Below are positions 1 to 35,286 of a stretch of DNA of 64,000 nt, piece after piece; position 1 is the first letter of the stretch, and every line of letters starts with the position of its first letter. A program made the translations under genes and the position numbers. A model generated the notes under the pieces. That model was not told the DNA's origin, ran no database searches, and saw nothing but the letters and a program-made list of their open reading frames with translations. This DNA is from a virus, in the IMG/VR virus record IMGVR_UViG_3300021425_002093, positions 64,001 to 128,000 of that record. One strand, given 5' to 3'.

Positions 1-260
1 TTATCACTTTTCTTTATCCACTTAGAAAATCTCTTTCTAGGTCTAATACTATTTAGTAAAAATTCGAATTGTGGACGATTATCCAGATCGCTATACATGT
101 TCATAAGATTAGCATGTAAAACGGTGTCCGGAAAGTAAGACAGTGCGTTGTTTGAAAGCCATGGCTCATAGCCACGTTCAGCAAGTGTGTCGTTTTCAGT
201 ATCACGCATTAAATTTTTCTTCGAATGCGTGATCGAGTTCACATAATCAAAAGGATTCAT
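1..260 (-). CDS. gp62: Clamp loader small subunit (T4 gp62-like), 3' end outside the window
   Basis: Not in the ORF track. Manual translation from ATG at 260 gives MNPFDYVNSITHSKKNLMRD...YEPWLSNNALSYFPDTVLHANLMN...QFEFLLNSIRPRKRFSKWIK, the typical gp62 pattern. ATGA overlap with the upstream gene; downstream of gp44. Confidence 0.9.
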   Translation of the reverse strand, partial: MNPFDYVNSITHSKKNLMRDTENDTLAERGYEPWLSNNALSYFPDTVLHANLMNMYSDLDNRPQFEFLLNSIRPRKRFSKWIKKSD

Positions 261-1084
261 TCCATCACCATAATTTGTTGTTCGCTCACTAACGGATTCA
301 TTGAGTTGTCCGTCTTCAACTTTTTTTTTACTTCGGGTTTAGCAATGATATCACGTTTGAACATTGCTGTCGATACTATCAATAGTATAATCGCCAAGGG
401 GTCGAAAACAAACACAAGTAAAAGAATAACGAAACGAACCGCATTATCGATGTCATAGTTCTCTCCGTAAATTAGTTCTGCTATGTATTTGATTGGGCCG
501 ATTTCTGCTTCAAGTTCAAGAGTTTGTTTCTGCAGGGGCAGAAGTTGTTCTTGGAATCCTGCAATCTGATCATACGCCAATCCGATTGTTCTGTTGAGTT
601 CTGTCCTTTCCTCTGCTTGCGCCTTCCGAACCGCAATTGCTCCATCAGGTCCTCTAATTCGGTCATAGTCTTGCAGTATTTCAACCGCAGAGTCGAGTTG
701 CGCCAAGACCGTTTCGGAGTCATCGATGATCGATTGCTGTCTTTCAATCTTTCTCTCGAGGCCGCTGATAAGTAATTCATTATTACCACCTTGATTTATT
801 GTCTGCTCTAAGTGAGCCTTCGATAGATATCCAAAGATACCCATTGAAGTGATAATCATCAGGACAAATACTGCTGATATTAGATAAGTCCTAATCCATG
901 TACTTATATCTTTCCACTCTAGATGAAGATATGCGGCAGTAACAAGTTTACCTATCTCTAGCACTGTCGCCATAATAACAACAGCCCAGAAAGCACCAGC
1001 AAAGATTGTAGACAATCCAATGATAGAGAAGTATCCCGCTACTGCCGCTATCGCAATAGCTGTAAGCAGAGTTACATACTTCAT
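257..1084 (-). CDS. Membrane protein: three N-terminal TM helices, coiled coil, C-terminal TM helix
   Basis: Hydrophobic stretches at the N-terminus and at FVILLLVFVFDPLAIILLIV; heptad-rich middle region. Overlaps both neighbours by ATGA. Confidence 0.75.
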   Translation of the reverse strand: MKYVTLLTAIAIAAVAGYFSIIGLSTIFAGAFWAVVIMATVLEIGKLVTAAYLHLEWKDISTWIRTYLISAVFVLMIITSMGIFGYLSKAHLEQTINQGGNNELLISGLERKIERQQSIIDDSETVLAQLDSAVEILQDYDRIRGPDGAIAVRKAQAEERTELNRTIGLAYDQIAGFQEQLLPLQKQTLELEAEIGPIKYIAELIYGENYDIDNAVRFVILLLVFVFDPLAIILLIVSTAMFKRDIIAKPEVKKKLKTDNSMNPLVSEQQIMVME

Positions 1085-1293: not shown

Positions 1294-2235
1294 TCATTTC
1301 CACTCCATCTCCGCCATAAGAGTTGCGAGAGCCGCTACTCTATTTATCTCGGAGTTTGCAACGAACGCTTCTTTGTACTGATACTCAGCGAGAATCACAA
1401 TTGCGTCAGCTACATTTTGAGTAGACTTGAGTTTGCTGGGTAGCACATCATAGAGTTGGCGGTAGAGTACCGCTGACTCAACATGAGAATTCTCAGCAAC
1501 CCACTTACGAACATCTGTGAAGTTTCTTTCACGCATCCTACTAATCAGGTCATCAATAGACTCGCCTGAAGTTGATACTAATATACCAGCATCAATACGG
1601 CCAGTAGCAGAATAACGCTGTAGTTCATTAAGGACTCGACGCCAATCAGGAAAATAAGTTTTGATAAGTTCAGCAACAGATTTTTCATCATATTCAAGAT
1701 CCTCAGTTTCCAGTATTTTACAGCATCGCTTAAAAAACTGTCCGGCGAGTTTGGTTTTATCAGCACCAGTTACATTGAATTCAACTACACTACAACGAGA
1801 GTGTAAAGGCTCAATGATACGGTTCTTAAAGTTACAAGTTAGGATAAAGCCGCAGTTTTTTGAAAACTCTTCCATAAAGTTTCTAAGTGCAGGCTGAGTA
1901 GAGTTTGCATTCAGATAGTCAGCTTCGTCTAGAATGACATACTTGCGGCCGCCGGAAAAAGAAACACTAGAAGCAAAGTTAGCGATTTCAACACGTAGAG
2001 TATCGATGTTACCATTCATCGAACCGTTGATTGTAATATAGTCAGCGCCAATCTCTTCAAGCATAGCTTTGGCCACAGTAGTCTTGCCAATACCAGCACG
2101 ACCAGTCAATAGAAGATTGGGCACATTATTTTGATCGACAAATTGCTGAAATGTTTTTTTCAGAGAGTCGGGTAAGATAGTATCTTGAATTGTTTTAGGT
2201 CGATATCGTTCAACCCAAATAAAGTTGTCTTGCAT
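1294..2235 (-). CDS. gp44: Clamp loader large subunit, AAA+ ATPase
   Basis: WVERYRP, Walker A GRAGIGKTT, Walker B ILDEAD, SRC motif (PLHSRC), FPDWRR. Confidence 0.97.
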   Translation of the reverse strand: MQDNFIWVERYRPKTIQDTILPDSLKKTFQQFVDQNNVPNLLLTGRAGIGKTTVAKAMLEEIGADYITINGSMNGNIDTLRVEIANFASSVSFSGGRKYVILDEADYLNANSTQPALRNFMEEFSKNCGFILTCNFKNRIIEPLHSRCSVVEFNVTGADKTKLAGQFFKRCCKILETEDLEYDEKSVAELIKTYFPDWRRVLNELQRYSATGRIDAGILVSTSGESIDDLISRMRERNFTDVRKWVAENSHVESAVLYRQLYDVLPSKLKSTQNVADAIVILAEYQYKEAFVANSEINRVAALATLMAEMEWK

Positions 2236-2330: not shown

Positions 2331-2606
2331 TCATGCAGCTTCGGCTTGTTGAGCCTCCTGTTGCGCTTGCGCTTGCTGGACAAATGCTTGCAAACGATCT
2401 CGCACTTGACCAACTGAAGACATTTCTTCACCACGGATTGCTCCACGTGTTACAAAAACGTCAATGATTTGTACAGCGGCCGCAAGGTCAGCAAACGACA
2501 GTTGTACAGGTTCACCTTCTGGAGCACCGGGTGCGGGGGGTACATCCATCTCAGGCATGGTGGGTGCTTCAGCTACAGCTTCAGCGGTGGTTACGTCTTC
2601 ACTCAT
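2331..2606 (-). CDS. Small hypothetical protein of a type common in T4-like phages
   Basis: SD GGAG; helical core LSFADLAAAVQIIDVFVTRGAIRGEEMSSVG. Confidence 0.75.
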   Translation of the reverse strand: MSEDVTTAEAVAEAPTMPEMDVPPAPGAPEGEPVQLSFADLAAAVQIIDVFVTRGAIRGEEMSSVGQVRDRLQAFVQQAQAQQEAQQAEAA

Positions 2607-2617
2607 AGTCTATCTCC

Positions 2618-4309
2618 TTAAGGGTTTGAGTCATCAACATAATCTACTGTAGTCCAGTAGGTCACATTACTTATATAACTTGTATCTTCTCCGTCAGTCT
2701 CTACTAGGTCCGCTGGATCATTCGGACGTGGATTCGCATTACCCGGTGCGCCAGGGCCAGTAGTATCGTAATCAGCTTCATATGTTTCGCTGTATCCATT
2801 GTTCAAAGCTTCAGCAAGTTCTTCAGCAGGAGTTGGCGCAACATACGTGTATGTACCAGTTCCGCCACTTCCACTTAGATCATTGGCCATGGCTACTAGT
2901 TTTGCATCTCGAAGAGCAAACTTTGCATCTTCAAGCTTTTCATCATTTTCCTGTATATCTAGAGTCTTTTGCTCTTCATACGCCTCGATGTCAGTTTCGA
3001 ATTGTTCGACCTGAGAATTAAATGACGAAATATTTGAATCAAATTCACTTTGATTGTATGTTATATTAACATAAGTTAGCTCACCTGTCAATTGCATTCT
3101 TTCAAATAGGCTCGAAAGAATCAATTCGTAGTCGATCCCAGAAAGTATCTTAGAGAAGAAACTTGCATCAACATAAAACGTAAAGTCATTTACAAACGGA
3201 GTGCCTGGTGCAGGTAAAGTCATTGTCCACTGATCTGATAGTACAGCGCTATCTTTCGCTAGATTAAACGTTACTGTGTTTCCACCAGTAAGACCTCGGA
3301 TTCCTATTTGCAAAGAAGGAAGTTCAGTAACGCTATTTGGATTTGTAGCGTTGTAGTCATCAACAGCTTGAGTGTAGTCGTTAACGGCTTGAGTGTACTG
3401 CTCAGACTTAAATTGAAGACTACTTAGATCTAAACCACTTTCGTTTTCAACTGGAGTAAGTTCAAACGATCCAGAAAAATCGAACTCCGCAGTGACACCT
3501 GATACTGCGCTATCGAGACCTTGCTGGCTTTCTGCTATTTGATATTGACTAACAGCGTTGTTAATCCTGTCAATATCGTTGTTCGTCAGCGTTACAGTAA
3601 CATCTTCGTCAGATGAAATATCTAATTGAGATACATCTGGTTGTGCTGGAATGTCTGCAGCATTTCCATACGGAAACGAGGCTATCTTTGCAGACGATCC
3701 AGATTGGATTTCTGTTATATCAAATTTACTTTGTGGATTAGAAAAAGTGACGAACGGAAGTTCGAAAAGAGTAAACTTTGCCAATAGACCGTTTATATCT
3801 CCCAATGGAGCAAGACTAGCAAACTGTATGGGGATGTTTGCTTGAGCGCTTATTGAGCCGTTAGAGCTATTAGATAGCAAATAGTTTGACGGATACTCAA
3901 TCACTCTTTGTATCGTCAACTCAGTATTTGTAATGTTTTGATTGTCGTTAACTGTGCCAGTATATGTAAGTCCTATGACGTAATTTCCACCTGGCGTTAA
4001 CGATGTAACTTCCCATCGACCGTCGAGGTTGGAATCTCCAACACCACTGATATCAATAAAATTATTGACTTCGAGACGATTAAAGAAATTGAGATAGTCT
4101 GCTGACGGGACTGGAGATACAGCATTGTTCCACTGTAGATTATCAGATCCAATAGTGTTAAGAACAACTCCATTAGAAACGAGCAAGCCCTTTTCATTAG
4201 AGTCGTCTAAAAATAGGTCGAAGTTATTTACGGGATCAAAAAAGATTCCGGAATCTAACTCAGAAAAAGCTTGCAGAATTTCTGTGGTTTCTGTAGTAAA
4301 CTGTGGCAT
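2618..4309 (-). CDS. Divergent sliding-clamp (gp45) paralog with three large insertions; very acidic
   Basis: Colinear blocks align by eye to the gp45 at 6963-7613 from first to last residue (see findings). Preceded by a late-promoter-like ATAAATAGTA. Confidence 0.7.
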   Translation of the reverse strand: MPQFTTETTEILQAFSELDSGIFFDPVNNFDLFLDDSNEKGLLVSNGVVLNTIGSDNLQWNNAVSPVPSADYLNFFNRLEVNNFIDISGVGDSNLDGRWEVTSLTPGGNYVIGLTYTGTVNDNQNITNTELTIQRVIEYPSNYLLSNSSNGSISAQANIPIQFASLAPLGDINGLLAKFTLFELPFVTFSNPQSKFDITEIQSGSSAKIASFPYGNAADIPAQPDVSQLDISSDEDVTVTLTNNDIDRINNAVSQYQIAESQQGLDSAVSGVTAEFDFSGSFELTPVENESGLDLSSLQFKSEQYTQAVNDYTQAVDDYNATNPNSVTELPSLQIGIRGLTGGNTVTFNLAKDSAVLSDQWTMTLPAPGTPFVNDFTFYVDASFFSKILSGIDYELILSSLFERMQLTGELTYVNITYNQSEFDSNISSFNSQVEQFETDIEAYEEQKTLDIQENDEKLEDAKFALRDAKLVAMANDLSGSGGTGTYTYVAPTPAEELAEALNNGYSETYEADYDTTGPGAPGNANPRPNDPADLVETDGEDTSYISNVTYWTTVDYVDDSNP

Positions 4310-4335
4310 GATCTACTCTATGACTAATTACACTG

Positions 4336-4346
4336 TACTATTTATT
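4336..4346 (-). promoter_or_regulatory. Late (gp55-type) promoter-like motif upstream of the gp45 paralog
   Basis: aATAAATAGTA overlapping the upstream stop codon. The same 10-mer ATAAATAGTA occurs at the late promoters at 16642, 18053, 29033 and 31988. Confidence 0.6.
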
Positions 4347-4988
4347 ACTTTTATTTGAGTGCTGATCAGCAAGCGCAAGTTGATCTTCAATCCACCTAGC
4401 ACATTCTTTAGCAGTCATTGTAGGACTGATAAGAGGCGTTCTATCGTCTTTTCCGATTCCACGAATGACAGATGCAGACAACATCATAGCACTAGCCATG
4501 ATCATACAGACCTGATGTAAGCCAGATCCGTCTTCAGCATCATCGTGATCTATGCCTCGCTCGAAGTCATCGATATGTCGTTTGAGGCTATCGATCATCT
4601 GTTGCCATGGAAGTCCCTTCTCCCAATTTCTAGACTCATACTTCTTAGCGCCGTATTCAAAAGATGCGGCTGCTGCAGCAAGTGCTTCTAGCGGAAGGAA
4701 TCTCATGTACGGGACACCGAGTGCTTCTCTTGTTCCGCCTACTTCAGCATCAATCTCAATGTCTTCTGTCATATCCAGCAAATGACTTTCTTGCATCAAG
4801 TCATCTATGTAAGAGGCTGGAGCGGGGTCTACTAGTTCACAGTCGGATGCTAAAATGAAATTGAGATAGCCGTCAGATGATCGACAAGAATACTCTCCAT
4901 TCTGCAAGTCAAATACTTCCCAGTTCTCACCAACCTTAGAAGAATACCATCTGGATCTATCAGGACATTGCGTTATCTTTACTATCAT
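4338..4988 (-). CDS. dATP/dGTP diphosphohydrolase-like protein (DUF5664-type) with an extra N-terminal beta domain
   Basis: FLPLEAL...FEYGAKKYESRNWEKGLPW...DSLKRH...D.DGSGLHQV is the characteristic motif set. Confidence 0.8.
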   Translation of the reverse strand: MIVKITQCPDRSRWYSSKVGENWEVFDLQNGEYSCRSSDGYLNFILASDCELVDPAPASYIDDLMQESHLLDMTEDIEIDAEVGGTREALGVPYMRFLPLEALAAAAASFEYGAKKYESRNWEKGLPWQQMIDSLKRHIDDFERGIDHDDAEDGSGLHQVCMIMASAMMLSASVIRGIGKDDRTPLISPTMTAKECARWIEDQLALADQHSNKSNK

Positions 4989-7646: not shown

Positions 7647-7675
7647 AGTTTATCACAAAAATCACTTGATGGCAA
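7647..7675 (-). promoter_or_regulatory. Sigma70-type promoter for gp45
   Basis: TTGCCA-N17-TAAACT with TGn extension. Confidence 0.6.
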
Positions 7676-8369
7676 TAGCTCCGACAAATAAATGATTCTG
7701 CCAGAACGGTTGAATTTTGTCAAACCCAAATCCCGCCGTAGCGAGAGCAGATTGTATTTCTTTCCATGTCATTGGCTTCAACATATTTCGAAGAGTTTGT
7801 TCTTTGTCCAAAATGTCTTTGTCTGAGAAGTTTTCCCGCTTGTAATCGTAATATGTAAACGTCATCATTTCTTGTAGTCTTGGATCTTGAGCAACCGTTT
7901 TCTCAGCAAAGATAAACGCACCATTCTTGTTCAGTGAATTGTAAATCTTCTTGAGTACATCACGACGAGATGTGGGGGGCATGAATTGTAGGGTGAAGAT
8001 CGAAGTGATTAGATTTGCATTCACAAAATCATAGTTGCGAATGTCGCCAATATGAAACTCAACCTTTCCTTCGACACCACCAAACTCTTCACGCATTTGC
8101 TTTTCACGTTCGTCGAGAGCAGGAATAAATCCATCAGCATACTCAATTCCCACGTATGTTGCGTTGGGAGCAAATTCGTTGTTTTGTCTCATCATCGCAT
8201 GAATAGTCTTGCCTGTTGAACAACCAAGATCAATTACGTTTGTATCGTCTTCAACAAAGTATCTACTAAGATTCACTATATCATCATGTAAAACACTATA
8301 GCCACGAATAGATTTGTCGATATGATCATCGAATCCTTCGTCTCTATGTGCAAAGGTAAAATCAGGCAT
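7662..8369 (-). CDS. cmoA: CmoA-like carboxy-S-adenosylmethionine synthase (class I SAM fold)
   Basis: FDDHIDKSIRGY, VIDLGCSTG, FTLQF, GAFIFAEK, YDYKRENFS..I..K: the CmoA family motif order. Confidence 0.8.
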   Translation of the reverse strand: MPDFTFAHRDEGFDDHIDKSIRGYSVLHDDIVNLSRYFVEDDTNVIDLGCSTGKTIHAMMRQNNEFAPNATYVGIEYADGFIPALDEREKQMREEFGGVEGKVEFHIGDIRNYDFVNANLITSIFTLQFMPPTSRRDVLKKIYNSLNKNGAFIFAEKTVAQDPRLQEMMTFTYYDYKRENFSDKDILDKEQTLRNMLKPMTWKEIQSALATAGFGFDKIQPFWQNHLFVGAIAIK

Positions 8370-8904
8370 TGTTCACTCTCCTCAGTTCATCATCTGTCCA
8401 GTTACCAAACTTCTTTGCTACTCGTAAGGGTATCTCTATAAACTTATCGTCTATCCATTCATTATTGAGATAAACTTTCTTTCGCTTCATTGTCCACATA
8501 TACTTTCTTTGCATTTCATCTGTACTCACGAGCGCTTTATCACCTTGCTTGTTAAGTGTACAACCTATGTAGGGTAGTCCCTCTTCTTTCCAGTACTTAA
8601 TCTTTCTTGCGAGTGCGTGACACCATCGATAGTTCTCAGGCCAGTCGGGATCCCACTTGATATAGTAATCGACTTCTATCAGACCGATCAACTCACCATT
8701 TTGCTTCACGCCGAGATCTACTTTGTAATCGCCAAGCGGGTCTTTGCATATCTTAGTGTTTGCTTCATCCGTGATATTAAACTGCGCTTTTATGTACTCT
8801 CGAAATTCATTATCTGTGTGAATCAGATTTACTAATGCGTCTCTCTGATAAGAATCATCATAGCAGTTTTCGCCATTATGCTCTCGTATTCGTTGACTAA
8901 GCAT
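8362..8904 (-). CDS. Hypothetical protein, possible PD-(D/E)XK-type nuclease
   Basis: DYKVDLGV....LIGLIEVD...W...W...RK.KY. Overlaps both the MTase and cmoA genes. Confidence 0.5.
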   Translation of the reverse strand: MLSQRIREHNGENCYDDSYQRDALVNLIHTDNEFREYIKAQFNITDEANTKICKDPLGDYKVDLGVKQNGELIGLIEVDYYIKWDPDWPENYRWCHALARKIKYWKEEGLPYIGCTLNKQGDKALVSTDEMQRKYMWTMKRKKVYLNNEWIDDKFIEIPLRVAKKFGNWTDDELRRVNNA

Positions 8905-10114
8905 TGTAAGGCTTTATCACATTTTCATAGACGGACTTTGCAAGTTCAGCCATCATCTTAGGAGCAACCATTCGACCAATTCGCTCCGCTTTCTGATTGA
9001 AGGTTCCCGTCAGTTGATAGTCCTCGGGCAATCCCATCAATCTCTTGAGTTCTGGTATCGTAAACTTACGATTATAATCATAGTGAAACACTCCGGAAGT
9101 AGTCATCTGTTGACCTAACTGAGTTAGTGTTGGACAAGGATGATAGGGAGAAGGCCGTTTCATATTAAAACACGATCCTGTTGGATTCCAATCAGCGAAC
9201 TCAGGCTGACTTGGGTTCAGTGTCTTATGTGGTCGAAATGGTAAGTTCTCGATAAACTTTTTCTGATAGGTTCTTTGTACGTAGTCGAGCAACATTTGGA
9301 TCTCTTCTGGATCATTTTCAATACCAGATAGTGCGCTTTCCATAGGAATCTTATCAGAGGTTCTCTCTGGAAACACTCGATTCATCGTTAGCACATTCAT
9401 ATCAATTGAATCAAATACATCTTGTCGAATACAAACAAAGATGGTGCGCTCACGATTCTGTGCTGTGCCATAATCAGCCGCATTCATCACTTGATACGTA
9501 ACCTCGTATCCAATTTCTTCAAATGCATTGATAAACTCAACAAGCTTACCTTTTGCTTCGCCCATAGTGATTCCCTTAACGTTCTCAGCGATGATCACTT
9601 TTGGCTGAATATCTTTTGCAATCCGAACAAACTCTAAAAACAGATCTTCAATACCTTCTTGAACCTTGTTGTCTGAGTATTTCTTTACTCCATCCTGTAC
9701 GACTATCTCACCTTCGTGAACAATATCTCCATTCTCATCGAAGTAAGACTTGCGTGTGTCTTTTACGTAACCAGCCCAGCCTTTCTCACGCTTACCCGAA
9801 ACAGAAAACGCAGAACAAGGAGGCGATCCATCTAGGATATCAAGCTCACCCTTTTTAATATTTGCAAGAGAAAGAAAATCTTCTCCAGTATACTTCTTAA
9901 TATCATCAACTAGGATTTTCGTGTCAGTATAGTTTTGCTTGTATGACGCAATCGCTTCTTCAACAAACTCGTTGATTAAAAGAACTTTTCCACCAGCGAG
10001 ACGATATCCAGTGCTACTCCCACCGCCGCCAGCAAAACAACTAATGACACTAAATCTATTTTCGTTAGACGCATTGATTACATCCTCGACTGTATATGGC
10101 TTGTATTCATTCAT
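8897..10114 (-). CDS. C5 cytosine DNA methyltransferase homolog, probable carboxymethyltransferase
   Basis: Motif I FAGGGG, IV GSPPCSAFS, VI ENV, VIII QNRERTIF, IX R.FT..E..RLMGLP; motif X reads ERIGRMVAP instead of G-N-x-V. Confidence 0.9.
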   Translation of the reverse strand: MNEYKPYTVEDVINASNENRFSVISCFAGGGGSSTGYRLAGGKVLLINEFVEEAIASYKQNYTDTKILVDDIKKYTGEDFLSLANIKKGELDILDGSPPCSAFSVSGKREKGWAGYVKDTRKSYFDENGDIVHEGEIVVQDGVKKYSDNKVQEGIEDLFLEFVRIAKDIQPKVIIAENVKGITMGEAKGKLVEFINAFEEIGYEVTYQVMNAADYGTAQNRERTIFVCIRQDVFDSIDMNVLTMNRVFPERTSDKIPMESALSGIENDPEEIQMLLDYVQRTYQKKFIENLPFRPHKTLNPSQPEFADWNPTGSCFNMKRPSPYHPCPTLTQLGQQMTTSGVFHYDYNRKFTIPELKRLMGLPEDYQLTGTFNQKAERIGRMVAPKMMAELAKSVYENVIKPYNA

Positions 10115-26505: not shown

Positions 26506-28995
26506 TTATGGAGCATAGTTTCTTTCGAGAGGCGCTACCACAGTAATATTATTAGCGTTACCTTCGTTAATTATGAAGGGCGTTGATACCCACTGTGCTG
26601 TATCAGTACCAACTGCTCTAATTACTGTATTTACCGCAGTATCAGAAAGTCGATTTTCTTCTCCGTTTGCAGAGTTGGGAGTCGTGTCACCAGTGAAAGC
26701 GTAGTCGAATGCGAATCCATTAGCATTGATGCTTCCAGAACCAGAGCCTGATATTTCACTTGTACCATTTGCTTGAAGTACAATAATCGCATCAGGCGAG
26801 TTAACAGGATTAAAACGGAAGTTTTCAGTTCCAGTAGTTTGAGCTTCGTTAGTGACCGCTCCATTTGGATTATCGTCATCTAACTTAGTTGCCGCAAAGG
26901 ATGCAGTTGTATCAGCCGCACTACCAGCTACGATGCTTCCAGTAACTTCCCAAACTCCATTGTTTCCAGCATTAGTGAATCCAGAGAAGTCAAGATAGTC
27001 TCCGACTGTCACTTCTGGCATATTATTAGTACCACCGTCTGTAATTGTAGCAGTTTGACCTGAAGCAGATGTGACGGAAAGTGCCGTAACATCAAACTCA
27101 CGAGTATACTCATAGTAGACTGTAAACGAAGGTTCGCTATCGTTAATTAAGTTGTCGTTGAATGAGATCGTACCAGAAGCAATCTTCGGGAAGAGTTCTA
27201 GCGATCCACCACCACCAGTGTATCGGAATGCTAAGTTACCAATATCTCCACTAGAGAAGTTAATGATAGCAACACCAGCATCGTTTGTAGCGCCGTCAGC
27301 GTGTTCTACAAGCAATGTCTGTAGAGTTGGTCCAACGAATGTCAACAATTCGTCAGAAGTCTTACCAACCTGAACGATTGAATCCGCACCTTCGTCATCG
27401 ACGTTAGTTGTTCTACGTAGACGATACTTAACCCAAGAATATAGCTCTTGAAGTGTAAGATTGCCAGTTCCAGTGCCATTCTCCGCACTGATCGTTACAC
27501 CAAAGTTTCTGGATGTGTTAAGATCAACTCCACCAGAGTAGAGTGTAGCGGAAGAAACGTCAGCGGCGAGATAGTTGATCTCTGGACCATTACCAGCCGC
27601 AACATCATACTTTTCGTTAGCACCATCAGCGGCTTCGATAACCTTGTCAGAAATTGTATAATCAAGATCTCTCAACTCCGCAAGTGGGAATCGGAATACC
27701 TGATAGTTTACAGCCGCACCAGATGCGATACCAATCGACACTGAGTCTGACTTACCAAACGTCTTACCTTCTTCACGAACGAAGAGAGAAAGTTCGTTAG
27801 TTCTGTTATCCGTAGTTCCATCAAACGTTTGAATTGCTTCGTTTACGGCACCAGCATATGTAAAGTCAGCAGTCGTTCCGTAATTAATATTTCGAATATT
27901 AACAACATCAGCTTCAGTTGTGTTAGTCAACGGTGTTCCCGTCAATACAATGTTGTTACTAGCGGCTGTAGCAATTGTAAATTGGCCGTCATTCGTTCCA
28001 CCCGATGTTCCAGAAATGACGATGATATCTCCATTAGAGAACGAATCAAAATCTCCAGCCGCACCTGTAATTGTATTAGTAGCCGTGATAACAAGTCCAG
28101 CTTTTCTGAGAGCGGGACGGAATGCGTAGTAAACAGTGTCACCGCCGCCAATTGTAACGGAAGCACCAACAGTTTCTGCGGTGAATGATGTTGCTGTGTC
28201 TGAAATGTAATCTTTAACTGTAAGTACGTCAGCAGTACCACCAGCACCGTCTGAAGTGACGTTAGTTACAACATATGTACCATCATTTCCGTTTGCGCTA
28301 CCGCTAACAGTGATCGTGTCTCCTGCCACAAAAATACCAAAGTTTTCTCCCGTTGATGTGATATCAGCACCAGAGAAGGAAATATCGGTTGCAGTGATAT
28401 TTGTGATCGCTTTACCATCAACAGTACCCAGTGAGATAACTCCCACATACTCAGCAAGTACAGTACCAGTAGTTGTGATCTCTCTCCATCCAGCAGTACG
28501 AATCAACTTTCGTGTTGCATCTGAGTTTGGAGTCCAATCAAACGAAAATTCAAACTGCTCTGGAGTAATTGCCACGAGCGGGAAAGGATATTCGATCAGA
28601 TGGTTGATAAACGTTACTGTATCTGTGCCAGTAAAGGTTGTATCAATATTTTTGTTTAGTGTTACTGTTGTTCCGCTAACACTAGCAACTTCAGTGGCGT
28701 CTAAAAGAACACCAGAACCAGAAGCGACTATGACAGTCATTCCTGGCAGAATTTCTTCCGAAGAAGGGCCAGCGGCTTGATCGAGTACAAGATCAGCTTG
28801 ACCGGACGCTCCAGAAGTTACGCCAATTGTAAAGTTTCGTACTCGCCACACCTTCTTGAGATATGAGTACATTGCCTGAAGAGTAACACCGTCTGGAGAA
28901 AGACCTCCGGCTAGTGCTAGTGAAATGTCTCTTGTTGCGGCATCTATCTGTAATTCTGTTCTTGATAGATCACCACCAGAAGTAATGATAGCCAT
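26506..28995 (-). CDS. Large virion-type protein with repeated beta modules (829 aa)
   Basis: Late promoter upstream; three GD-x-I-x-x-SG...N(D/N)G-x-(Y/F/W)-x-V modules. Confidence 0.75.
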   Translation of the reverse strand: MAIITSGGDLSRTELQIDAATRDISLALAGGLSPDGVTLQAMYSYLKKVWRVRNFTIGVTSGASGQADLVLDQAAGPSSEEILPGMTVIVASGSGVLLDATEVASVSGTTVTLNKNIDTTFTGTDTVTFINHLIEYPFPLVAITPEQFEFSFDWTPNSDATRKLIRTAGWREITTTGTVLAEYVGVISLGTVDGKAITNITATDISFSGADITSTGENFGIFVAGDTITVSGSANGNDGTYVVTNVTSDGAGGTADVLTVKDYISDTATSFTAETVGASVTIGGGDTVYYAFRPALRKAGLVITATNTITGAAGDFDSFSNGDIIVISGTSGGTNDGQFTIATAASNNIVLTGTPLTNTTEADVVNIRNINYGTTADFTYAGAVNEAIQTFDGTTDNRTNELSLFVREEGKTFGKSDSVSIGIASGAAVNYQVFRFPLAELRDLDYTISDKVIEAADGANEKYDVAAGNGPEINYLAADVSSATLYSGGVDLNTSRNFGVTISAENGTGTGNLTLQELYSWVKYRLRRTTNVDDEGADSIVQVGKTSDELLTFVGPTLQTLLVEHADGATNDAGVAIINFSSGDIGNLAFRYTGGGGSLELFPKIASGTISFNDNLINDSEPSFTVYYEYTREFDVTALSVTSASGQTATITDGGTNNMPEVTVGDYLDFSGFTNAGNNGVWEVTGSIVAGSAADTTASFAATKLDDDNPNGAVTNEAQTTGTENFRFNPVNSPDAIIVLQANGTSEISGSGSGSINANGFAFDYAFTGDTTPNSANGEENRLSDTAVNTVIRAVGTDTAQWVSTPFIINEGNANNITVVAPLERNYAP

Positions 28996-32622: not shown

Positions 32623-35286
32623 TTATACTGAACCAACGATTTCTTCGAATTCTACACCAGTTCTAACAGCAACGAAGTTTAGCTGAATGAAATTGATCGC
32701 ACGAGCAGGCTTGATGAAGATGTCTCCAACAAACTGATTACCGTCAATTACTTCTGCGGTATTGTTAGTTTCGTCACACACGACCTTGAAGTCGTAAATT
32801 CCACGACGACCCTGTACTTCACGTAAGAAGGGCTCCACGAGATTCTTAAACTGCGCTCTCGTGAACTCATCGTTGAATTCGAACAACAATGACTTAGAAG
32901 CAATCGAGATAGCCTTCTCAAGAACAATGAACAATCTTCGGACATTGATTCTATCGAATGCGCTTGCAGTCGTAGCGAACGTCTTGTCACCAAACAGAAT
33001 TGTTCCAGCGCCAGGCTCTGAGACAACAGGGTTGACATTATTTACGTACAATAAGTCTCTTTCTGCTTTAGTAGGATTGATTCTCAGCTTCACAACATTC
33101 TTGATAACACCTCTATTCAATCCAGCAGGAGAGAACCAAGGATCACGAACTTCGTCTGTTCTCGCACAAAGACCAGCGATATCGCCGTTGAGAGGCACCC
33201 AACGATATACATCGTTGAACTTATCGTATTGATACTTGTATCCAGTATCGACGATCATGTATGTGCTTCCTGTCAATGTGCCTGCAAAGTCAATTACAGC
33301 ACTGACTGTTGTGTCAGACTCTTCGGGTGATACAAACGCAACACAGTCTTTTCTAGACTCTGCAATATTGTTTGTGATGTAATTACCCAGAGTTGTACCT
33401 CTTGCTTTACCTTGCATAACAAGTGCAATGTCAACTGTAGAAGCATCTTTGTACAGATCATAACCTTCAGCAACTTTACCGATGCTGATATTAGCTTCAT
33501 CATCACCGTCGTAACCGAGAGTTAGTGATTGTTGCTCAGAAGTAGCAGTTGCAACAAGCGCTGAAGGGCTAGAGCAAGCAATGTAGTTTGACTTATCAGT
33601 AAGTACGTCAGCAAGATAGTTAACTGAACCATCTGACTTTGTAGCGCCTGGAACAGTGCTTACGTCTTCGTAAACTTCCAAGATCTGATTAACTACACCA
33701 GTAATTGATCCGTCAAGATCTCTTACAACAACGTGTACGTGGCTTGCAGTTGGCTTAGTGAGGAAAAGACCTGCGTCCGCCCACTGTACGCTGAATCCAG
33801 AATCGTAAGTAGTTGCTCCAGTATACACATTTTCGAACGTGACGTTCGCTGACCAGCTATCAGAGATACCAAACGTTTGAGTAACGCCGCCATCGACTCC
33901 ACCGAATGAAGTGATATTGATTGCAGTTCCTGCTTCAGCATTTTCGTATGTTGTAGCCAGCTTGAAGTTATTTGTATCAACTACAATTGCGTAGTACACA
34001 GTTCCGTCTTCAAGACCGTCGATAGCATCGTTATTACCGCCACCTACGTTATACTGAACAGCATCACCTGTTGTCAGACCGTGATTCTTGATGAAGAAAG
34101 TATCAGTAGCCGTGTATACAGATCCGTTAGGCTCACCAGTAATTGTGATTGCGTTTGCGTCACCAGCATCAGCAGTTAGCGTTCCACCAGAAACAGTCAA
34201 GATGTAATTACCTGATCCGCCAGTATCATCTACAGCACTTACGACTGTAAATGTACCGTTGTTACCAGCTTCTGTTGCACCACTAATAACAATTGTTTCG
34301 CCGGGCTGGAAAACTGTAAAGTCTTGAGTTGGAGACGCAATTGTTTCTGGACCTGTAGTAAAAATAAAACCAGTGCCAGTGACAGAATCTACCACGTTCG
34401 CATCGCTATTCACGATGTTCAGAGCAGTAGCACCAATGTTATCTTCTACTTGAACAGCGGCAATACTTTCGATCTTAAGATTTGTTCCGTCTTCCAGAAT
34501 TACATTATCGCCTACATCAGCAAAGTTTTGGGCTTCCGTCTCAGTTGTAAAACCAGAAACGACTGAAGGATTTACAGAATCAAACGGAGTGATAGCAATT
34601 GTGTAGCCTGCATCAACAGCTTCAAATGCACTTGTGCCATTTGCTTGAGTTGAGCAGTAAGAAACAGCAAGACTATTACCAAGACGACCTTGATACTTTG
34701 CTTGGAAATTAGTTGAAAATGCGGCACGAGCGGCACTGTCAACTACAGGACCTTCAGCAAATGTACCTGCGTCTGCGAGATCTTGAGCAATTGCGTAATT
34801 AGAAGTTACGCCTTCTACGATGATTTTAGTTGAGCTAGGAATTGAAGTTACTCTGTAGTAACCATCGTTGCTAGTAGAGCCAGATACTTCAATCTCATCT
34901 CCTACTTGTAGCTTAGTATCGAAATCGGCACCTGTTGCAGAAATAGATGAATCTGCAACAGCAAAATCCATCGTAGCAACCTGAACACGATCACCGCCAG
35001 TTGTACGAACTACGTACAAAGCATTTGAGTAGTTGAGGAAGTTTGATGCAGTGAAAAACGTTTCGTAGTTACGCCACTGACTCGTATATTGTGAATCTTT
35101 GAAATAAGAAGTGGGTTCACCAAAAGTGCTAACCAGTTGCTTCTCATTTGAAATCAGAACCCTTTCGTTCACAGGGCCCCATCGAAAAACGCCAGCGATA
35201 GCACCGACAGAGACCGCTACCGCTGGGACAACGGACGTTAAGTCGATTTCGCTAACATTGACACCGGGACTTACTTGAAATGCCAT
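32623..35286 (-). CDS. gp18: Contractile tail sheath protein, enlarged (887 aa)
   Basis: SPGVNVSEIDL, WGP, PWFSPAG.NRG, FDRINVRRLF, FEFNDEFTR, IKPARAINFI.LNFVA. Confidence 0.98.
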   Translation of the reverse strand: MAFQVSPGVNVSEIDLTSVVPAVAVSVGAIAGVFRWGPVNERVLISNEKQLVSTFGEPTSYFKDSQYTSQWRNYETFFTASNFLNYSNALYVVRTTGGDRVQVATMDFAVADSSISATGADFDTKLQVGDEIEVSGSTSNDGYYRVTSIPSSTKIIVEGVTSNYAIAQDLADAGTFAEGPVVDSAARAAFSTNFQAKYQGRLGNSLAVSYCSTQANGTSAFEAVDAGYTIAITPFDSVNPSVVSGFTTETEAQNFADVGDNVILEDGTNLKIESIAAVQVEDNIGATALNIVNSDANVVDSVTGTGFIFTTGPETIASPTQDFTVFQPGETIVISGATEAGNNGTFTVVSAVDDTGGSGNYILTVSGGTLTADAGDANAITITGEPNGSVYTATDTFFIKNHGLTTGDAVQYNVGGGNNDAIDGLEDGTVYYAIVVDTNNFKLATTYENAEAGTAINITSFGGVDGGVTQTFGISDSWSANVTFENVYTGATTYDSGFSVQWADAGLFLTKPTASHVHVVVRDLDGSITGVVNQILEVYEDVSTVPGATKSDGSVNYLADVLTDKSNYIACSSPSALVATATSEQQSLTLGYDGDDEANISIGKVAEGYDLYKDASTVDIALVMQGKARGTTLGNYITNNIAESRKDCVAFVSPEESDTTVSAVIDFAGTLTGSTYMIVDTGYKYQYDKFNDVYRWVPLNGDIAGLCARTDEVRDPWFSPAGLNRGVIKNVVKLRINPTKAERDLLYVNNVNPVVSEPGAGTILFGDKTFATTASAFDRINVRRLFIVLEKAISIASKSLLFEFNDEFTRAQFKNLVEPFLREVQGRRGIYDFKVVCDETNNTAEVIDGNQFVGDIFIKPARAINFIQLNFVAVRTGVEFEEIVGSV

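Follow-up and report, generated by a model that had tools for sequence, protein, structure and literature searches.

The window examined here, a 64,000-nucleotide (nt) stretch that forms the middle part of the 143,934-bp IMG/VR phage record IMGVR_UViG_3300021425_002093, encodes two proteins related to the gp45 sliding clamp of T4-like phages. One is an ordinary clamp; the other, the 563-amino-acid (aa) product of the open reading frame (ORF) at 2618-4309, hereafter P0001, is a gp45 paralog expanded by three insertions. (The upper coordinate of 4346 given in a preliminary description of this DNA takes in a promoter-like motif ahead of the gene; the ORF itself ends at 4309.) We propose that P0001 is a neofunctionalised duplicate of the phage's gp45 that provides a clamp-shaped scaffold and, in this phage, is late-acting or virion-associated, and to this explanation as a whole we assign a probability of roughly 45%. 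According to it, gp45 would have been duplicated, with the copy retained beside the clamp loader and keeping the two-domain protomer, and a normal gp45 remaining in the genome. The copy would have dropped the lysines and arginines of the pore and turned very acidic, presumably no longer serving as a DNA-encircling processivity factor, and would form a clamp-shaped, putatively trimeric scaffold on which inserts 2 and 3 are displayed as helical arms. In this phage the scaffold would also carry a beta module like those of the tail sheath and other virion proteins, and P0001 would most likely act late, as a virion-associated or assembly-stage structural component.

That P0001 is a homolog of gp45 is practically certain. 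The preliminary description had aligned it by hand, colinearly and from end to end, with the gp45 of the same window; this alignment is unconfirmed at the pairwise level, since BLASTP between the two proteins gave no significant match (best E = 0.036, over the N-terminal 22 residues). Where pairwise BLASTP is insufficient, however, profiles bear the colinearity out. P0001 matched phrog_223, the clamp family of PHROG, with E = 1.3e-9 over residues 140-260, and this family was matched by seven of the seven paralog family members tested (best E = 1.6e-19). A joint family profile found T4 and RB69 gp45 in the PDB at E = 2e-5, and hhalign, set to compare the eight-member family with 24 ordinary gp45 sequences, returned a probability of 99.4% and E = 2.2e-21 over 198 columns, colinear across gp45 positions 4-201 of 225. 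Two residues of the last clamp strand, Y551 and W552, are invariant in all 31 aligned sequences, paralogs and gp45 taken together. Against Pfam, P0001 matched no family at E up to 0.01, and hence PF09116 did not rise above the cut-off; a word-indexed protein search returned the query alone, and the best phmmer match in the PDB was discarded as coiled-coil noise from the A118 integrase (E = 0.07).

Structure prediction points the same way. From the single sequence, AlphaFold reached a predicted local distance difference test (pLDDT) score of only 32; from a joint alignment, it gave a model with a mean pLDDT of 75, in which 215 residues, and the core, score above 90. As this alignment included gp45 rows, the model is not independent of the homology, and the sequence evidence stands alone. 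T4 and RB69 gp45 ranked first when the model was searched with Foldseek, and again with VIA-align. In the latter, 220 of the 228-230 residues of these two clamps were superposed on the model (Z 21.2-21.6; root-mean-square deviation 2.4-2.6 Å), the superposition extending over model residues 2-563 and the alignment ending at residue 561-563; PCNAs followed in the ranking at Z ~18. A fold search of BFVD with the same model returned normal-size clamps only. The two-domain PCNA-like protomer fold is thereby shown, as predicted by the model, to be complete in P0001 from the first strand to the last.

The three insertions lie within a few residues of the places originally assigned to them, judging from both the alignments and the model (Table 1). 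Without them a core of about 245 aa is left, close to the clamp-sized 240 aa first estimated, and it superposes on T4 gp45; the interdomain connector has the length of that in gp45 and the C terminus is free, according to hhalign. Insert 1 follows the second strand and is restricted, in the family alignment, to P0001 and its closest relative, P0003. Insert 2 lengthens the third pore helix to residue 270 in the model and adds a return helix at 302-328. Insert 3 contains an amphipathic helix of about 60 residues (420-480) in which the heptads are cleanly spaced, followed by two short helices and a linker rich in proline. Every one of the eight family members has inserts 2 and 3, shortened in those of 340-345 aa, and for insert 3 it is the first half that is family-wide. 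On this distribution in the alignment, the insertions are of unequal age, inserts 2 and 3 being family-wide and insert 1 recent. Searched singly, the inserts matched nothing in Pfam or PHROG. The end of insert 2 also stands out in a near-identical contig from another sample (L012), which differs from the window at six positions in 16.6 kb: five of the six fall in one 25-nt stretch inside the paralog gene (3298-3322, residues 330-338) and comprise L330I, S332A and three silent changes. This cluster looks like a small recombination patch or a local hot spot of diversity.

Relatives were sought by an exhaustive HMMER scan of 1.84 billion representative proteins, which yielded six full-length sequences, and by a scan of viral contigs, which added one more. 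Including P0001, the family thus has eight members of 340-581 aa, all encoded by intact ORFs and confined to metagenomic contigs from a single uncultured T4-like clade. A further hit of the exhaustive search, P0010, proved to be a repetitive protein matching a low-complexity stretch and is not a relative; an additional metagenome scan contributed only a copy of locus L008 and an ordinary gp45. When 50,697 phage records were searched by tblastn, P0001 found no match and its 340-aa relative P0009 found ordinary gp45 genes only, from which we conclude that no cultured phage in this collection carries the family. The gp45 of the window, by comparison, has 678 close relatives. When a tree was built from the shared core, the paralogs clustered together on a long stem, with long internal branches.

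The gene has the same surroundings in every recovered locus, namely a diphosphohydrolase-like gene, the paralog, an ORF of phrog_13789, gp44, a small ORF, a membrane protein of about 265 aa, gp62 and regA, and wherever the contig extends far enough a normal gp45 of 215-216 aa lies 2.6-5 kb upstream of the paralog. Homolog search and synteny, both put forward earlier as checks, therefore give a family of eight with a constant order by gp44 and a normal gp45 alongside. No paralog is present in the sister phage L011 (gp45 64% identical), where the diphosphohydrolase-like gene is followed in turn by an unrelated gene of 269 aa, gp45, phrog_13789 and gp44. The comparison indicates that the paralog sits in the slot occupied by gp45 in the sister lineage, and that the normal gp45 of paralog-bearing phages is located elsewhere. 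Two ORFs considered as possible clamps in these loci were dismissed: the 269-aa ORF before gp45 in L011 is not a clamp, and a 216-aa ORF in L003, at 15% identity, is not gp45.

P0001 is as strongly acidic as the preliminary description had it, with an isoelectric point of 4.05, 84 Asp and Glu against 19 Lys and Arg, and a net charge of -65; net charges range from -27 to -65 in the family and from -7 to -11 in ordinary gp45. The loss of basic helix residues, likewise asserted there, can be followed at four positions on the four pore-lining helices of gp45. K12, R59, K179 and K184 (window numbering) are nearly invariant in 23 gp45 sequences and are replaced or unconserved in the eight paralogs. 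These features bear directly on whether P0001 could be a working second DNA clamp that gp44/62 loads for one special task, such as late transcription, recombination or repair, in parallel to 9-1-1 or the archaeal PCNA paralogs. Such a role would suit the complete clamp fold, the adjoining clamp loader and the presence of gp55 in the window, which leads one to expect clamp-dependent late transcription in this phage. It is hard to reconcile, however, with the absence of the pore lysines and arginines conserved in gp45, with a core holding 8 Lys and Arg in about 245 residues, with the charge of -65 carried by each protomer, and with a divergence several-fold above that of any nearby replication gene; we consider it quite improbable. 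By its sequence, P0001 is probably not a processivity clamp at all.

Among replication proteins, sliding clamps belong to the most conserved. When the same pairs of phages are compared, identity is 71-75% for gp45, 80-87% for gp44, 72-85% for the diphosphohydrolase-like protein and 62-82% for the small phrog_13789 ORF, and it is 26-53% for the paralog. In these sequence comparisons the paralog is shown to diverge far faster than its neighbours and not to behave as a slowly evolving core replication gene. Because the gene is intact in all lineages and the residues of the fold core are kept, it must be under selection, but of a kind other than that acting on a replication clamp. Very fast divergence, together with low-complexity and poorly modelled stretches, would also be expected of a decaying, functionless duplicate in which the insertions are junk. 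Against this stand intact ORFs of 340-581 aa in all eight lineages despite identities down to 26%, the invariant fold-core residues, two insertions that are kept across the family and contain conserved motifs, and a dedicated promoter motif conserved in two lineages, so that we give decay very little credence.

The promoter motif is the first of three observations that bear on when and where P0001 might act. The preliminary description had credited the gene with a late promoter of its own, and such a motif is indeed present (Table 1): the ATAAATA site at 4339-4345 reads AATAAATAGTA, with a GTA extension in common with four strong sites. ATAAATA occurs 19 times in the window, 18 times on the coding strand, and 13 of these 18 sites start 29-58 nt before a non-overlapping ORF start, compared with 3.4% by chance (binomial P ~6e-16). 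Most of the sites that precede ORFs stand before genes for the head, tail and fibres. L003, the closest relative, has the extended motif too, again 36 nt ahead of the paralog, and the spacer is recognisably conserved. A dedicated late promoter of P0001 is, on this pattern of sites, credible in this phage. The claim does not extend beyond this phage and its closest relative, and on present sequences the motif is a recent acquisition, made in the sub-lineage in which insert 1 also appeared. Since motif and insert 1 are both found only in these two phages, the late role is not a property of the family.

The second observation concerns a small beta module within insert 1, which had been described as virion-type. 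A hidden Markov model (HMM) built from the paralog modules matched the tail sheath at two sites (E = 5.7e-5 in a search of 568 ORFs) and an 829-aa protein weakly. In the reverse direction, an HMM built from the sheath and 829-aa modules alone found residues 76-129 of P0001 with E = 1.2e-4 and P0003 with E = 0.02, ranked P0001 ahead of every non-structural ORF of the genome, and recovered two further large phage proteins, one of them a 1246-aa virion structural protein of phrog_1645. This reciprocal support, moderate in its E-values, agrees with the original label. The same type of module occurs elsewhere in P0006, inside insert 3 and before the long helix (domain E = 0.006), and P0008 has a weaker match after the long helix (domain E = 0.64). 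The differing positions in P0001, P0006 and P0008 indicate, by these matches, that the family acquired a module of this type independently on no fewer than two occasions, and probably on three.

Within the phage, the module (about 60-70 aa, with the pattern F..(v)GD.I.(v)SG..n.(N)DG.Y.V) is present in 2-3 copies each in the tail sheath (32623-35286) and the 829-aa protein (26506-28995), and once each in two other large proteins, at 133886-135226 and 137948-141688 of the genome (L018 and L019). It matched no Pfam or other curated family. The sheath and 829-aa copies match part of phrog_1236 ('head protein'), which does not match the paralog. An E1_FCCH-like beta barrel (PF16190), suggested as the identity of the module by an ESM Atlas lead at 0.84, was abandoned when PF16190 found nothing in the whole record at E up to 10; the ESM Atlas gave sub-threshold leads only.

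The third observation is composition. P0001 contains 3.4% Lys and Arg and 39% Ser, Thr, Asn, Gly and Gln, and so falls in with the tail sheath, the late proteins of 699 and 829 aa and the giant fibre-like proteins (2.9-5.9% Lys and Arg, 36-44% of the polar residues); it falls outside the replication proteins, which have 8.8-16% and 22-30%, respectively.

For this phage, the promoter motif, the module shared with the sheath and a composition like that of virion proteins together make a late, structural or virion-associated role likelier than any other single reading of P0001, and action late in infection is most likely here because the motif precedes the gene in this phage and in its nearest relative. 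We nevertheless advance this role tentatively, from features of the sequence. A more specific form of the proposal, in which a replication ring was recruited as a late structural or virion part, perhaps a trimeric collar or hub that bears adhesin-like beta modules as on the sheath and evolves at the pace of a host-contact protein, seems to us rather unlikely.

Several points weigh against a late or virion-associated P0001. The gene is located in the replication module and not in the structural module. In the other five loci checked the promoter motif is absent and the start codon of the paralog adjoins or overlaps the stop of the enzyme gene ahead of it, an arrangement of start and stop that suggests co-expression with genes of replication time. 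The connector is gp45-like and the C terminus is free, so the face on which clamp partners dock could, from the sequence, still work. The similarity of the module is short (about 55 residues) with moderate E-values, the inserts match no curated family, and the gp45 rows in its input helped the model towards a clamp fold.

Some of these points lead to the main rival, an intracellular clamp mimic that would keep the docking face without holding DNA and would titrate or regulate proteins that bind the clamp, for example the clamp loader, the polymerase, gp55/gp33 or a clamp-attacking factor of the host. Clamp-binding C-terminal peptides are known to dock in a hydrophobic pocket of gp45 (PMC6212786). 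A mimic would account for the retention of the clamp fold, the connector length and the free C terminus, for the fixed place by gp44 and the start-stop overlap with a nucleotide-metabolism gene in most loci, and for the loss of the basic pore residues; the very fast divergence would then reflect an arms race. It leaves unexplained, however, the sheath-type module, the virion-like composition and the putative late promoter of this phage, and no candidate target is known. We regard it as unlikely. Of the earlier claim that a duplicated clamp was repurposed late in infection, the duplication, the three insertions and, very probably, the loss of the ordinary clamp job are upheld, and the late role does not apply family-wide.

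Table 1 Coordinates of the gp45 paralog, its parts and its neighbours in the window
Feature	Position	Strand	Evidence and remarks
gp45 paralog gene (P0001), 563 aa	2618..4309, including stop codon	minus	ORF list and translation; ATG start; phrog_223, hhalign and model match
Residues 1-26: first strand, first pore helix and second strand of clamp N domain	4232..4309	minus	BLASTP, HMM and hhalign; helix 6-18, strand 22-25, pLDDT 80-93
Insert 1, residues 27-139, beta-rich, after second strand	3893..4231	minus	Family alignment; pLDDT <50
Small beta module, residues 76-129, motif F..(v)GD.I.isG..n..(N)DG.Y.V	3923..4084	minus	Reciprocal HMM matches
Residues 140-257: remainder of N domain, interdomain connector, first C-domain helix	3539..3892	minus	phrog_223, hhalign; pLDDT mostly 80-96
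Insert 2, residues ~258-331, family-wide	3317..3538	minus	Alignments; model helices 243-270 and 302-328
Residues 332-411: C-domain sheet, fourth pore helix	3077..3316	minus	hhalign to 'DY.V.LS' strand; pLDDT 87-96
Insert 3, residues ~412-543, in last hairpin	2681..3076	minus	Alignments; helix 420-480 with pLDDT 84-95; heptad spacing
Residues 544-563: last clamp strand with Y-W pair	2621..2680	minus	Invariant Y551/W552; VIA alignment
Late-promoter-like motif ATAAATAGTA	4336..4345	minus	Overlaps stop codon of upstream gene; first base 36 nt before ATG
Upstream neighbour, dATP/dGTP diphosphohydrolase-like protein (PF18909, dGTP_diPhyd_N)	4338..4988	minus	Directly before paralog in every locus
Canonical gp45 sliding clamp, 216 aa	6963..7613	minus	phrog_223, E = 2e-65; PF09116, E = 9e-10, 39 bits
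Downstream neighbour, small acidic 91-aa ORF (phrog_13789)	2331..2606	minus	Between paralog and gp44 in every locus
gp44 clamp-loader large subunit	1294..2235	minus	phrog_168, E = 1.6e-115; PF21328

The gene order of the window is T4-like, running from UvsW, gp55, gp47 and gp46 through a three-gene methyltransferase cassette, gp45 and six small ORFs to the diphosphohydrolase-like gene, P0001, the 91-aa ORF and gp44, with head, tail-sheath and fibre genes farther along. None of the small ORFs that separate gp45 from P0001 has a product ending in V-W. The methyltransferase cassette occupies the interval between gp46 and gp45 (7662-10114, minus strand) and consists of a C5-cytosine methyltransferase-family gene, a 180-aa ORF and a CmoA-like methyltransferase (phrog_4752), which overlap one another; L012, L013 and L016 have it as well. 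The phrog_13789 ORF contains 4.4% Lys and Arg, and its sole match among cultured phages is in Agrobacterium phage Atu_ph07. In L003, gp44 was called in two pieces of 94 and 193 aa (8530-9472), through a frameshift or an assembly error.

An ATAAATA also lies at 1341-1347, inside the 3' end of gp44, where the peptide S-E-I-N-R-V is written GAG ATA AAT AGA. We compared this position in the window, L003, L004, L006, L008 and the sister phage L011: the embedded motif is present in all five paralog-bearing loci, 44-54 nt ahead of the next ORF, and L011 writes the same peptide as GAA ATC AAT CGT and thus lacks it. That the motif is set by synonymous codon choice suggests, from sequence comparison, a real promoter for the downstream genes. 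Between gp44 and gp62, every paralog-bearing locus encodes the protein of about 265 aa (275 aa in the window, at 257-1084, minus strand, with a 70-aa ORF at 1081-1293 alongside), which is 61-68% identical across these loci and absent from L011. Its N- and C-terminal segments are hydrophobic and probably span the membrane, its central region resembles a coiled coil, and it matched no Pfam or PHROG family. It could be a partner of the paralog or just a protein specific to the clade.

Among known systems, the gp45 proteins of T4 and RB69 (PDB 1CZD, 1B77 and 6DRT; PF09116; phrog_223) are the closest to P0001, being homologous and colinear, with the same two-domain fold and connector length, the N-terminal motif and terminal Y-W strand in common, and a gene by the gp44/62 clamp loader. 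Unlike these clamps of 216-228 aa, P0001 with its three insertions has 563 aa and is not compact; it lacks a Pfam match and the conserved basic pore residues, carries a net charge of -65, diverges far faster, coexists with a normal gp45 and is preceded by a late-promoter motif of its own. The eukaryotic 9-1-1 complex and Sulfolobus PCNA1-2-3, structures of which are among the fold matches of P0001, are likewise built of duplicated PCNA-fold protomers that work beside or instead of a standard clamp with special partners. These paralogs encircle DNA, keep a basic pore and have no large domain insertions, and they resemble P0001 solely as specialised duplicates. UL42, UL44 and BMRF1 of herpesviruses are viral proteins in which the clamp fold has left the mechanism of ring plus loader: they have the PCNA fold without a closed trimeric ring and bind DNA through a strongly positive face (PMC3201878), whereas P0001 is extremely acidic.

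In T4-like phages gp45 is counted as a single-copy core gene (PMC2988020), and no paper describing a gp45 paralog in this group turned up in our literature searches. The family reported here is a defined set of proteins of 340-581 aa, the shortest of which lends itself readily to expression and testing. Duplication of a clamp fold, together with loss of the charges that face DNA, gain of modules and fast evolution, would be a clear case of the reuse of a replication part. If P0001 is a component of the virion or of its assembly, it would bring a new fold to the structural repertoire of phages; if it is a clamp mimic, it would represent a new kind of regulator or counter-defence.

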